A stretch of 4,193 nucleotides of DNA from a virus (Duplodnaviria > Heunggongvirae > Uroviricota > Caudoviricetes), in the IMG/VR virus record IMGVR_UViG_2675903417_000005, positions 1-4,193 of that record, one strand, 5' to 3'. Below are positions 1 to 4,193 of this stretch, piece by piece (positions within the stretch are counted from its first letter, which is position 1; each line of letters starts with the position of its first letter). The translations under genes and the position numbers were made by a program. The notes under the pieces are model-generated. The model searched no databases and was not told the origin of the DNA. It saw only the letters and a program-made list of their open reading frames with translations.

Positions 1-150
1 GGTCTGACGGCGCTTAGTGCTGAATTCACTATCGGCGAAGGTGAGTTGATGGCTCATGATGTCCCTCTGGGATGCGCTCCGGATGAATATGATGATCTCA
101 TATCAGGAACTTGTTCGCACCTTCCCTTACACACAGCGCAATGTTGTTAG
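1..150 (+). CDS. Possible 3' end of an upstream ORF (49 sense codons open to the window edge, stop TAG 148-150); product unknown
   Basis: Frame 1 is the only + frame open from position 1, and runs to TAG at 148-150. It is in the same orientation as the downstream coi/c1 pair. Chance openness of 49 codons is roughly 10%, so support is weak; no start codon or RBS is visible. Confidence 0.25.
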   Translation, partial: GLTALSAEFTIGEGELMAHDVPLGCAPDEYDDLISGTCSHLPLHTAQCC

Positions 151-229
151 ATTACCCCAGCATGGATCATGGGTGAAACAGTAGGTCAGAGCTTCAGGCT
201 CTGTGTTGTCAATACAGTGAGGCATAATT

Positions 230-439
230 ATGGCTTTCATTCAACCAACCATCGACGACGTTAGACATTGCTCTAACGCTTTATCTGTAGACCCTGCCGA
301 AACCGACGCTGCCCGCGCCATTGCTGAACACTACTCAAAGATATCCAATCAGGAGTACCGCATCACCCAAGACGACCTGGATGACCTCACTGACACAATC
401 GAATATCTCATGGCAACTAACCAGTTAGACTCACAATAA
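230..439 (+). CDS. coi: Coi-like C1-repressor inactivator (small acidic antirepressor), 69 aa
   Basis: ATG at 230 preceded by SD-like GTGAGG (217-222) with a 7-nt spacer; stop TAA 437-439. The protein is small and acidic (many D/E). Its length of 69 aa and position immediately upstream of, and co-oriented with, a 283-aa ORF match the P1 coi-c1 arrangement. Identity is by recall of family properties, not alignment. Confidence 0.75.
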   Translation: MAFIQPTIDDVRHCSNALSVDPAETDAARAIAEHYSKISNQEYRITQDDLDDLTDTIEYLMATNQLDSQ

Positions 440-482
440 ATGCACTAATAAATCTATTATTTTTGTTTGATCCCTCTATAAT
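439..482 (+). promoter_or_regulatory. C1-operator-like 17-mer (439-455, AATGCACTAATAAATCT) overlapping the -35 region of a putative sigma70 promoter (-10 TATAAT at 477-482) upstream of c1
   Basis: 439-455 matches the asymmetric P1 C1 operator consensus ATTGCTCTAATAAATTT at 14 of 17 positions, including a perfect CTAATAAAT core. A perfect TATAAT hexamer lies at 477-482, about 70 nt upstream of the c1 ATG; no good -35 is present, and the operator sits where the -35 would be. Confidence 0.5.
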
Positions 483-549
483 ATAGGTCAGTAATGACCG
501 GTTTTCTCAGCCGGGCGTTATTGACCATGTCAATTCTGGAGGAGGATCA

Positions 550-1401
550 ATGATAAATTATGTCTACGGCGAACAACTGTACCAGGAGTTCGTCAGCTTC
601 AGGGATCTCTTTCTAAAAAAAGCTGTTGCACGCGCCCAACACGTTGATACAGCCAGCGACGGTCGTCCTGTACGCCCGGTTGTCGTTCTACCGTTCAAAG
701 AAACTGACAGCATTCAGGCTGAAATTGATAAATGGACTTTAATGGCGCGGGAACTGGAACAGTACCCAGACCTCAATATCCCAAAGACTATTTTATATCC
801 AGTGCCTAACATCCTTCGCGGTGTTCGCAAGGTTACAACTTATCAGACAGAAGCTGTGAACAGCGTCAACATGACCGCTGGCCGCATTATTCATCTGATT
901 GATAAGGACATTCGCATCCAAAAAAGCGCGGGGATCAATGAGCACAGTGCGAAATACATAGAGAACCTGGAAGCAACAAAAGAGCTAATGAAGCAGTACC
1001 CAGAGGATGAAAAATTCCGTATGCGCGTACACGGCTTTAGCGAAACAATGCTGCGCGTCCACTACATTTCCAGTAGCCCTAACTACAATGATGGTAAATC
1101 AGTGAGTTACCATGTGCCACTGTGTGGCGTGTTTATCTGCGATGAAACTCTCCGTGATGGAATTATCATCAACGGTGAATTCGAAAAAGCAAAATTTAGC
1201 CTTTATGACTCCATAGAACCGATCATCTGCGACCGCTGGCCGCAAGCAAAAATATATCGCCTGGCAGATATTGAAAATGTAAAAAAACAAATTGCCATCA
1301 CTCGCGAAGAGAAAAAGGTCAAATCAGCCGCATCAGTTACGCGCAGCCGCAAAACTAAGAAGGGGCAGCCAGTAAACGACAACCCCGAAAGCGCGCAATA
1401 G
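550..1401 (+). CDS. c1: C1-like primary lysogeny repressor (P1-type), 283 aa
   Basis: 283-codon ORF with ATG at 550 preceded by a strong SD GGAGGAGG (538-545); stop TAG 1399-1401. The 283-aa length, its position downstream of a 69-aa coi-like ORF, the operator-like 17-mer just upstream, and convergence on pacB all fit P1 c1. No canonical nuclease or NTPase motifs were seen; the C-terminal tail is basic. Confidence 0.8.
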   Translation: MINYVYGEQLYQEFVSFRDLFLKKAVARAQHVDTASDGRPVRPVVVLPFKETDSIQAEIDKWTLMARELEQYPDLNIPKTILYPVPNILRGVRKVTTYQTEAVNSVNMTAGRIIHLIDKDIRIQKSAGINEHSAKYIENLEATKELMKQYPEDEKFRMRVHGFSETMLRVHYISSSPNYNDGKSVSYHVPLCGVFICDETLRDGIIINGEFEKAKFSLYDSIEPIICDRWPQAKIYRLADIENVKKQIAITREEKKVKSAASVTRSRKTKKGQPVNDNPESAQ

Positions 1402-1410
1402 TTTCCATCC

Positions 1411-1444
1411 GGCATGGTTAATGAGTTATTCATTAAGCCATGCC
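1411..1444. terminator. Stem-loop between the convergent c1 and pacB 3' ends (14-bp stem with one bulged G, 5-nt loop); candidate bidirectional terminator or RNA-stability element
   Basis: GGCATGGTTAATGA (1411-1424), loop GTTAT (1425-1429), TCATTAAGCCATGCC (1430-1444). The right arm overlaps the last codons of pacB. No flanking U-tract on either strand, so it is not a canonical intrinsic terminator. Confidence 0.4.
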
Positions 1445-2910
1445 AGAGCTTCATCAACCTGCGCTTCGTCTTCGACGCTAAGCACTTCATCTTGGGGAAC
1501 ATAGTTCGCCAACATAGCGAAACAATATGTATCCCAATGGTCCGGTGAGTGCAGGTTGAGTTTTTTCTTCATATCTTCCTTTGACATCACCTTCCATTGA
1601 CCTGCGGAATTTATCCCTACCGGTATCTTTGATGCTTCCTCTATAGTCGCAGCCCCCTTATCAAGCCTCATACGCCCTGATTTTACAGCTTCTGCCGCCT
1701 GAATATTCGCGAAAGCGCGCATATCGAAATAAAGGCTTTTATCTTCACGGCTGTGCATCTTTTTACCCCAGCGGATACGCTGGACGGTAATGCCATAGCG
1801 TTCGTACATTAGATCAGCCGTCGATTTCCCCAAGCCATCGCCATCAATAGCTATGGTTATGTTCGGGAACCGTTCTGGGTTACATTCTGCGAAAATCTTG
1901 GCGGCTAACTGCGTTTCTGTAACGTCTGTGTATTCCAGCATACGATAGTTGATTACACGGCGTTTATTTCGCTGGCCGGACACCATCATGATATTAATAA
2001 CGGACTTATCTCGTCCTGTGCCACCAGCAACGTCAACACATGCAACCCAGCCCCATCCTTTGGCAATCTTGACCTTTCGCCGCGTCGCCCGCTCAACCTC
2101 ATCACGACCAAGAAGAAAGCCATCTTGAGATTTGGGAAATTCACCACGTACTTTGATCATGTACATGGGGTTATCACGACCGCCATACTCCGCAAGTTTT
2201 GCTCGTATAAATTTTGCATCTACAAGCGGAGATTCTTCACTATTCAGTATTATCGCAGTAAACAATCCATCAGGATTTCCCGGGCGAATAGCTAGTCTGT
2301 GGTGTGAATCGTAGAAATAGCCTGAAGGTCGCGTAGGCTGGGAAAGAAGCAGAATACGGTTATCCTTACCGGTCAGCGCACCTGTTATCACACTGAATGC
2401 TTTATCACTCACACCCGACGCTTCGTCGATGATATACAAGAGATGATCGGCGTGTTCACCAGCCAACGCCTCCTCATTTCCGGGGCGACAGGACTTTATC
2501 AATATTGTCCAAACACCCTTGCCAGTCACCTCAAAAAAAGACGTTTCTGTAAGAATGAAATACTTCGACAACCACGGGAATCTGCTAACAGCAGTAGCCC
2601 AATTGCTCTTTATGTATTTGAAAATACCATCAAGGACTTGCTGTCTTTTGTTAGCGACCAGAATGACGCGAGCGCCGGGGAAAAACATGATGAAGAGTAT
2701 TGCAATGATACTCGTCATATCCGATTTACCAGTACCATGGCCGGAGGTCACACTTGTCCAACTGCCGTCCTGCTGCGTGGACTCAATGATCTCATCCTGC
2801 TGCCAGGTTGGTGTCTTCCCAAACAACACATCAGCGGCCGCAATCCAGTCATAACGATATAGCGCCACCAGCTCGCGCCAACGTGGGTCCGTTACGCAAC
2901 TTCTGGCCAT
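1426..2910 (-). CDS. pacB: Terminase large subunit (ATPase + nuclease), PacB-like, 494 aa
   Basis: Walker A SGHGTGKS is encoded at nt 2722-2745 and Walker B LLYIIDEA at nt 2419-2442. The C-terminal half has RNase-H-like nuclease acidic motifs ([23 protein letters not shown]). The ATG at 2908-2910 overlaps the upstream stop (TAATG). The 494-aa length matches what I recall for P1 PacB. Confidence 0.88.
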
Positions 2911-3980
2911 TAATCATCATCCCCGTACAGTTTGCGGGTAACTTCTTCGTCTTCCTCCTCGTCTTCGTCCAGATCCTGTTCAAGCCATGCTTCGTTTGAT
3001 ATGCCTTCCGCATCGACATCACCATAACCACCTGTATCGACGATATCGGCAATTTCTTCTCTACGATGCTCAATCCACAATGCCGCATCAGCGCGGCGGC
3101 TGGCGGCCCGTTCTCGCGCGATTTTATCCAGATCTTCAAGTGATGGAGCGCCAGATGCTGTTTGGTTTTCCTCATCATCGGTATTGGTCTTAGGAGCACG
3201 CAGATCGGCTTTGATTTGCTCCAGCATCAGGGGCGGCACTTTTCCTCCATGCGCCTCGATGAATTCAGCCGCTTCCAGCACTGACCAGTTATTTTCACGC
3301 TTTCGTTCGTATGCCAGCTTAACAATGCCAGCTTGCCCCATAGATAAAGCGTGCTTTTCCGCCTCCCGGCTTTCTTTTCGATAGTTATTCCGGATGCTGT
3401 AAATGGTGTTGATCAGGCTGCTTATCTGCGCGGAACAGCTGTTTAGCATGCTCGCGATACGGTATTCAGGCGGAGTACCTTCATCATCGTCTTTTTGCTG
3501 ATCGCGCATTTCCTGCACCAGGCGAATACACGTATCCCTGGCGTTCTCCAGCATAAGGAGATGAGAAAGAGACTTTTCCAGAAGAGTGGTTTCCAGAACA
3601 TCGGCCCCGGACCGACGCAACATAGCGCGCGCGGCCTTCCGCGCTTCAACGTTATCTATCAGGTAATCGCCAGCTTCGAATTCAAAGCGTTCACCATCAT
3701 CATCCAGGGTGTCGCGTTCCAGGCGATCACGTAAGGTACGGTGGGCGCGGGTGATCACGTCATGATCATCAGAACGATCATTTATGCGCTTATTTTGGCG
3801 CTTAGCGTTCTCGACTGCGGCACTAACAACAGCATTAACTTTTTGTTTTTCAGCCATTTCAGCCACAACGTAATCACCTGCACGTTGATCATTAGCGTGA
3901 TCAATGATCATGCTTTTTAGTGGTTTCCTGACAGGCTTATTTGGCTTAGGGGTTTGAGGGCCAATGATGCAAAAAACCAC
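2910..3980 (-). CDS. pacA: Terminase small / pac-recognition subunit, PacA-like (start codon uncertain: GTG 3980, ATG 3911 or ATG 3857)
   Basis: Long ORF immediately upstream of, and translationally coupled to, the large terminase (stop TAA 2910-2912 overlapping the pacB ATG). The 5' coding region contains the 4+3 TGATC(A/G) hexamer cluster, consistent with the P1 pac site lying within pacA. The C-terminus is highly acidic ([11 protein letters not shown]). An in-frame TGA at 3996-3998 limits the N-terminus, and none of the three candidate starts has a strong SD. Confidence 0.72.
3724..3911. other. pac-like packaging initiation site: seven Dam-methylatable hexamers TGATC(A/G), four at 3724-3780 and three at 3886-3910, flanking a roughly 105-bp core
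   Basis: Hexamers on the pacA sense strand: TGATCG (3724-3729), TGATCA (3752-3757), TGATCA (3763-3768), TGATCG (3775-3780), then TGATCA at 3886-3891, 3898-3903 and 3905-3910. About 0.15 such hexamers are expected by chance in this span. The 4+3 arrangement and overall size match the described P1 pac site, whose cleavage depends on Dam methylation of these elements. Confidence 0.6.
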
Positions 3981-4088
3981 GCTAACAGCGTTAGTTCATT
4001 GTTTATATTGAAATTGATAGGTACTGCGTTTACAGCCACTTCAGTCGTCATGGTGGGGCTGAGGGACGGGTCCGCTTGGAAAAAGGAA

Positions 4089-4103
4089 ATTATCCTACTA
4101 TAA
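4089..4103 (-). promoter_or_regulatory. Candidate promoter for pacAB: -10-like GATAAT (minus strand, 4094..4089) abutting the 9-mer TTATAGTAG (minus strand, 4103..4095)
   Basis: On the minus strand, CCCTTATAGTAGGATAATTTCC gives a TANNNT-type -10 with no recognisable -35, which is what an activator-dependent (Lpa-type late) promoter would look like. The 9-mer recurs at 4179-4187. This is weak: 9-mer repeats are expected by chance in 4 kb, and I cannot recall the exact late-promoter consensus. Confidence 0.25.
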
Positions 4104-4119
4104 GGGCTTCCCCGAACAG

Positions 4120-4191
4120 TCAACGCCGGTTTTTAATTTCTGTCTGTTCATCAATGAAAGGCAAGGGATAAGACTGCGCTACTATAAACGG
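4120..4191 (-). CDS. Possible 3' end of an upstream minus-strand ORF (23 sense codons open to the window edge, stop TGA at 4120-4122); product unknown
   Basis: One minus-strand frame stays open from the window edge to TGA at 4122..4120 (translation ...PFIVAQSYPLPFIDEQTEIKNRR*). In P1-like genomes a gene lies upstream of pacA on the same strand. A stretch this short is open by chance about a third of the time. Confidence 0.2.
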   Translation of the reverse strand, partial: PFIVAQSYPLPFIDEQTEIKNRR

Positions 4192-4193
4192 TC

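Follow-up and report, generated by a model that had tools for sequence, protein, structure and literature searches.

Genes at the locus and relation to phage P1

The stretch of DNA analyzed here, which we call the window, is the reverse complement of the entire sequence JXVP01000151.1 (4193 bp; assembly GCA_000948675.1). Positions 126-3947 share 98% identity with phages P1 and P7, in which the matching genes are annotated pacA, pacB, c1, and coi (Table 1), and all 20 P1-family phage records are 93 to 98% identical to the window over positions 3650-3947. The alignment to P1 (AF234172) is gapless, such that a window coordinate equals 94632 minus the P1 coordinate. Names for both terminase subunits came from PHROGs. 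Pfam returned no families for PacA, PacB, C1, or Coi, NCBIfam provided a name for C1 only among these four proteins, and no Rfam RNA families were found in the window.

The first 125 positions are not P1-like at the megablast level and are identical or nearly identical to phages RCS47, phi456, and ECO111 5-P; this mosaic boundary (125/126) lies upstream of coi, within immC, the immunity region. What we take to be the C1 operator consensus, ATTGCTCTAATAAATTT, has matches at 439-455 and 2198-2214, with 3 mismatches each (0.01 expected). The former sits between coi and c1, the place of the Op99 operators in P1, and the latter sits within pacB.

Table 1. Features of the window. Gene positions are those of pacA; fractions give the number of compared sequences in which a hexamer is intact.
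Feature	Position	Strand	Remarks
coi	230-439	+	Intact ORF
c1	550-1401	+	NCBIfam C1 equivalog, 1.9e-184; intact ORF
pacB, large pacase/terminase subunit	1426-2910	-	494 residues, intact; phrog_2 'terminase large subunit', 1.7e-44
pacA, small pacase/terminase subunit, 5'-truncated	2910-3948	-	phrog_1711 'terminase', positions 64-402
Minimal pac site equivalent (~161 bp), within pacA	3751-3911	-	Gapless alignment to P1 AF234172
Eighth hexamer, TGATCG on pacA strand	3724-3729		Gene position 375; intact 60/64; outside minimal pac site
HEX3 hexamer TGATCA	3752-3757		Gene position 347; Val-Ile-Thr; intact 62/64
HEX3 hexamer TGATCA	3763-3768		Gene position 336; Asp-Asp-His; intact 62/64
HEX3 hexamer, TGATCG on pacA strand	3775-3780		Gene position 324; Asn-Asp-Arg; intact 61/64
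Primary pac cleavage positions equivalent, both strands	3819-3828		P1 annotation 90804/5, 90806/7, 90810/11, 90812/13
IHF binding-site equivalent, AAACAAAAAGTTA	3836-3848	-	One mismatch to WATCAANNNNTTR; P1 feature 90784-90796
Degenerate fourth HEX4 hexamer	3871-3876		Gene position 228; TAATCA on +, TGATTA on pacA strand; GATC gone
HEX4 hexamer TGATCA	3886-3891		Gene position 213; Asn-Asp-Gln; intact 62/64
HEX4 hexamer TGATCA	3898-3903		Gene position 201; Ile-Asp-His; intact 62/64; present in JK004-type relatives
HEX4 hexamer TGATCA	3905-3910		Gene position 194; Met-Ile-Ile; intact 61/64
Mobile-element end, starting GGGGTTTGAGGGCCAATG	3949-4193		Replaces pacA 5' end, LPpac promoter, and lpa

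A cluster of Dam-site hexamers within pacA

A sequence-only reading of this DNA had described seven TGATCA/TGATCG hexamers, counted on either strand, that begin at 3724, 3752, 3763, 3775, 3886, 3898, and 3905. These positions are exact, and every hexamer contains GATC as that reading had stated. Its chance expectation of about 0.15 agrees with the 0.136 hexamers per 187 bp that base composition gives. Across 5000 dinucleotide-preserving shuffles of the window, the maximum in any 187-bp span was 4 hexamers, reached 16 times, and 7 never occurred. The total number of GATC sites in the window is not enriched (23 observed versus 19.2 expected), and the signal therefore lies in the local clustering and in the flanking T...R context.

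Because the site is inside pacA, the hexamers are written into codons, and they occupy two different reading frames (xTG-ATC-Axx and xxT-GAT-CRx). The peptide MIIDHANDQ had been offered as an example. Its codons were given correctly, the reverse complement of 3885-3911 being ATGATCATTGATCACGCTAATGATCAA, but MIIDH is internal to the protein and not a native N terminus, its methionine being Met65 of the 397-residue PacA.

The cluster corresponds to the P1 pac site

In P1, pac occupies 161 bp of pacA: seven TGATCA/G repeats, grouped as HEX4 and HEX3, carry Dam sites, IHF has a site there, and cleavage takes place in the middle (PMC10028697). Dam methylation at pac is required by P1 (PMC12707154). 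The proposal that the window holds a P1-type pac site inside its small terminase gene is borne out by homology: the cluster matches, with no gaps, the part of P1 in which pac cleavage and IHF features are annotated (AF234172, ~90722-90880). The gene, the position within the gene, and the flanking genes are all the same, and identity to this experimentally mapped region is 94% over 298 bp (94.3%; 17 substitutions in 298 bases). Six canonical hexamers, the eighth hexamer, the IHF site, and the cleavage core are all in register with P1. A location in the 5' coding region of pacA had also been proposed, and this holds for the hexamers, which lie at gene positions 194-380 of 1194 with pacB directly downstream, but the copy of pacA in the window is itself truncated upstream of the site.

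The internal arrangement is likewise that of pac. Two groups of at least three hexamers (three at 3886-3910, three plus one at 3724-3780) surround a core of about 90 to 105 bp. Within it, the equivalent of the P1 cleavage positions carries one substitution relative to P1, at 3825. A consensus scan returned AAACAAAAAGTTA as the sole IHF-consensus match in the core, a predicted site beside the cleavage positions, and the P1 record describes the corresponding interval as 'IHF binding site in the region of pac cleavage site'. The P1 reference set of seven hexamers is represented by six, although the full set is a property of the reference site and not of every natural member. Between the IHF site and HEX4, the pac core also contains a perfect 9-bp tandem duplication at 3848-3865 (TTTCAGCCA twice), of which the P1 version is imperfect.

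Dense GATC clusters are typical of Dam- or SeqA-regulated origins, and this one might instead serve as an origin of replication under SeqA or Dam control, or might switch transcription, in the manner of oriC or P1 oriR. We reject that reading as extremely improbable: the position is homologous to the mapped P1 pac cleavage site, no repeats are present beyond the hexamer contexts, and the cluster holds no promoter-like sites. The P1 origins oriR and oriL (the latter within repL) are located elsewhere in the P1 genome.

We found nothing that contradicts identification of the cluster as a pac site. The best overall explanation, in which we have very high confidence, is that this is the pac of a P1-family (Punavirus) element, the start of PacA/PacB headful packaging. 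In this contig the site is most likely a relic.

Registration of the hexamers and loss of one HEX4 element

The sequence-only reading had counted the hexamers as "4+3". This count is misregistered and coincidental, in that P1 has 4+4 hexamers in the same span and the window has a canonical 3+3 plus one extra. We took the canonical seven from the pac-disrupting template in the supplement of PMC10028697, which mutates the hexamers at pacA positions 194, 201, 213, and 228 (HEX4, toward the start of pacA) and 324, 336, and 347 (HEX3, on the opposite side of the core) and leaves the one at 375 unmutated. The mutated hexamers span gene positions 194-352, equivalent to window positions 3752-3910, and are all that a 161-bp site can hold.

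The element that differs from P1 is the fourth of HEX4. Positions 3871-3876 (P1 90756-90761) read TGATCA in both P1 and SJ46, whereas the window carries TGATTA, a single C-to-T change on the pacA strand that replaces His with Tyr. Across the 64 sequences compared (see below), position 228 reads TGATCR in 58, TGATTA in 3 (the window included), and TAATCA in 1, and GATC is missing there from 4 of ~61 close relatives. The TGATTA variant is natural, being common to the Escherichia coli AW1.7 IncY plasmid and an IMG/VR locus (L007), both of which have full-length pacA. The AW1.7 IncY plasmid (NZ_CP073625.1) and the IMG/VR contig 2667527959_000010 are 100% identical to the window over 3600-3948, TGATTA included; unlike the window, they carry a full-length 397-residue pacA with lpa upstream. 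Sternberg and Coulby are said to have found, in 1987, that removal of one hexamer lowered cleavage roughly tenfold.

Conservation in close and distant relatives

We compared the hexamers across 64 sequences, comprising the window, P1, SJ46, and 61 IMG/VR loci. Conservation across P1-family pacA genes was one of the points on which the earlier reading had staked its assignment, and each of the seven hexamers is intact in 60 to 62 of the 64; the exceptions are two loci without the region and one divergent locus. In a set of 45 distinct close sequences, variation affects 5 of 48 hexamer positions versus 42 of 139 positions elsewhere in the site (Fisher p = 0.006), and the mean minor-allele frequency is 0.004 at hexamer positions versus 0.039 at other positions, statistics that are indicative only, given the close kinship among the sequences. 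Three of the five variable hexamer positions fall in the element at 3871.

Divergent relatives are stronger evidence of conservation than these close-relative statistics. Cronobacter phage JK004 and locus L059, with PacA identity of about 70%, have hexamers at positions 201, 213, 228, 324, 336, and 347, although the encoded residues differ, and extra hexamers at 175 or 275 and at 364 and 390. Farther away, the PacA homologs of Pantoea and Citrobacter phage-plasmids are 25 to 30% identical to that of P1. Pantoea phage-plasmids (23 loci, 25 to 28% PacA identity) carry two TGATCA hexamers that precede the start codon by ~70 bp, and a further six inside the pacA homolog, at positions 153-218 with an exact 12-bp period, where they encode repeated Asp-His. 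Citrobacter relatives carry five TGATCA hexamers upstream of the pacA homolog. All three types resemble the window in placing two hexamer groups in the 5' part of a PacA homolog or immediately ahead of it, with a large terminase gene downstream of the homolog. They differ from it in layout: 4+5 hexamers in the JK004 type, two hexamers upstream of the gene plus the 12-bp periodic array in the Pantoea type, and five hexamers upstream of the gene in the Citrobacter type.

The Pantoea- and Citrobacter-type loci were L070 (1735-2028), L073, L075-L096, L069 (1765-1835), and L074. When clusters in four distant loci were set against 1000 Markov simulations, three exceeded every simulation and the fourth equaled the maximum. 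A single-protein search of genome contigs confirmed zero relatives, and an alignment-based search of genome contigs found 6.

These comparisons bear on a simpler account, in which the hexamers have no DNA-level function and are a by-product of encoding Asp-His, Asp-Gln, and Asp-Arg dipeptides. Five of the seven do encode Asp followed by His, Gln, or Arg, and elsewhere in the gene, too, Asp is mostly encoded by GAT (24 GAT, 6 GAC). Two hexamers, however, lie in the other frame (Met-Ile-Ile and Val-Ile-Thr), and the preceding T, a third-codon position, is also kept. Hexamer positions are some ten times less variable than their neighbors, at 70% identity the hexamers persist while the surrounding residues change, and the Pantoea and Citrobacter arrays lie partly upstream of the start codon. 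In P1 itself, synonymous mutation of the hexamers reduced the titer ~9-fold (PMC10028697). We regard a purely coding origin as very unlikely indeed, and the two frames and the divergent relatives exclude it in practice.

Two IMG/VR P1-like viral contigs (L062 and L063, 1546-2001) have a pacA cut to its C-terminal 151 residues and do not contain the hexamer cluster. They represent an independent loss of pac together with the 5' end of pacA.

Truncation of pacA at a mobile-element junction

Homology to every P1-family record ends at 3948, and this truncation, at 3948/3949, was absent from the sequence-only reading. From 3949 onward, the window shares a segment, at 100% identity, with hundreds of unrelated plasmids; there, the match always begins at the same base and the left flanks differ. 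An IS110-family IS5708 transposase lies ~160 bp past the end of the window, and sister contigs run into this transposase. This sharp shared boundary, with a transposase adjoining it, fits the insertion of a Tn3-family-like or IS5708-associated mobile element; no target duplication or second junction came to light. The terminal sequence GGGGTTTGAGGGCCAATG, which we take to resemble Tn3-family terminal repeats, may be part of IS5708 itself or may be an inverted repeat of the Tn3-family type that IS5708 has entered. The longest sister contig shows the element ending, on its far side, in an inverted, imperfect GGGGTTCGCGCTCAATGGAACGAAATCACC (GGGG...) repeat. The 50 bp past this repeat match plasmid pEc78 and not the 5' end of pacA; therefore, the event was more than a simple insertion, or at least the rest of pacA does not adjoin the element. 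The mobile-element loci examined were the window (3948/3949-4193), L097 (1-1650), and L006 (7001-8615). Part of the same mobile-element end also occurs on an E. coli plasmid (NZ_CP010179.1, 35532-35685), where the overlapping gene carries the annotation Ref family recombination enhancement nuclease.

The P1 sequence kept in pacA corresponds to about codons 53-397 of an intact protein of 397 residues. The first usable ATG, at 3911, is Met65 and opens a 333-residue ORF, the longest that draws on P1 sequence only, such that the first 64 codons are gone; the phrog_1711 match covers positions 64-402 of 417 versus 1-402 for an intact relative. The P1 late promoter LPpac and lpa would map to 4139-4157 and to 4189 onward, respectively, and both are missing. 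In P1, pacA codons 1-64, LPpac, and lpa stand where the window has the mobile-element end. The removed N terminus holds the sole helix-turn-helix-like similarity of PacA, which is weak (phrog_370 and transposase HTH matches, residues 3-103). Inside the mobile-element end, a terminator-like hairpin followed by a T run (3979-3991, minus strand) is oriented toward the truncated pacA and would restrict expression of the remnant by read-through.

The junction is genuine and recurs. An identical 333-residue product occurs on 22 contigs from different assemblies, and across the junction, four of five sister contigs are identical to the window at every base, the fifth differing only at 3612. None of the 22 contigs exceeds 10 kb, and the block is therefore bounded by repeats. 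A 356-residue product of a GTG-started ORF, unlike the 333-residue product, has no database record. Searches of PLSDB plasmids, complete E. coli genomes, and JGI metagenomes did not turn up the exact junction; in the first two sets, no record reached 80% coverage.

One view of the truncated locus is that a descendant of P1 pac sits dead in this genome, in a ~4-kb remnant (coi, c1, pacB, and truncated pacA) between mobile elements, with no functional pacase made and nothing packaged from the site. It concerns the functional state of the site only and not its identity, and we incline toward it slightly. The loss of codons 1-64 and LPpac points this way, as do the removal of the segment with the only HTH-like similarity, weak as that similarity is, the disappearance of one HEX4 hexamer, the confinement of the truncated gene to 22 repeat-bounded contigs below 10 kb, and the presence of DNA other than the pacA 5' end past the far end of the element. 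Against it, the 161-bp site is intact except for one point change, and that same change occurs in relatives with intact pacA (the AW1.7 IncY plasmid and L007). pacB, c1, and coi are moreover intact ORFs, and a co-resident or superinfecting P1-type phage could provide the pacase.

DISCUSSION

Homology to P1 suggests how a site of this kind would work. The pacase would recognize the two groups of TGATC(A/G) hexamers that flank the core of ~90 to 105 bp. By analogy with P1, binding and cutting would need Dam-methylated GATC adenines, IHF (3836-3848) and HU would bend the core, and the cut would be spread over about one helical turn (~10 bp) at 3819-3828. Headful packaging would presumably proceed to the left in the window, toward pacB and c1.

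The contig retains six of the seven canonical hexamers, the conserved eighth, an IHF-like site, and the core, and the outermost hexamer lies 38 bp from the mobile-element junction, which leaves the minimal site physically intact apart from one point change. With codons 1-64 and the late promoter of pacA gone, the site is most likely a relic; because the minimal site is intact 38 bp inside the junction, it could still be cut by pacase from another P1-type phage. In cis, the site is probably dead. Taken together, these features of the sequence indicate that pac here is probably an inherited relic that could be cut only with pacase provided in trans by another P1-type phage.

A recognition site inside the small terminase gene is also found in P22 (gene 3) and SPP1 (gene 1), phages with series-initiated headful packaging. 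We know of no Dam-site hexamer arrays in the pac sites of P22 or SPP1, nor of any gating of these sites by adenine methylation. P1 pac is the textbook element on which P1 transduction depends, as do P1 and PAC cloning vectors and the P1 phagemids now used for delivery. A pac element of this kind is thus already known, and its presence in a P1-like contig adds nothing fundamental. Only two points are mildly new: the TGATCA arrays in distant PacA homologs, and the survival of pac beside a disabled pacA in a recurrent lineage.

A joint reading of these two points, which we put forward tentatively and rate at somewhat below an even chance, is that the TGATCA code is general to the PacA family and that, separately, a recurrent lineage keeps pac beside a disabled pacA. 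Given that the arrays recur, in a different bipartite geometry, at only 25 to 30% PacA identity, Dam-site TGATCA repeats may be a recognition code that is ancestral to PacA terminases and general among them, beyond P1. The contig may likewise represent a recurrent lineage (22 assemblies) in which a near-intact pac stands beside a disabled pacA.

Several consequences follow for annotation. Anyone counting "4+3" hexamers should note that the span contains eight in P1 and that a canonical element is lost in natural variants. TGATCA arrays in distant PacA homologs offer a cheap sequence rule for pac prediction in phage-plasmids. A pac site can also outlive its own terminase gene, which bears on predicting the segments that helper P1-type phages transduce at high frequency. 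If the recurrent lineage is as proposed, such DNA could hitch-hike in P1-type particles whenever a helper supplies pacase, and if the family-wide code holds, methylation-gated initiation of packaging would be widespread among enterobacterial phage-plasmids.
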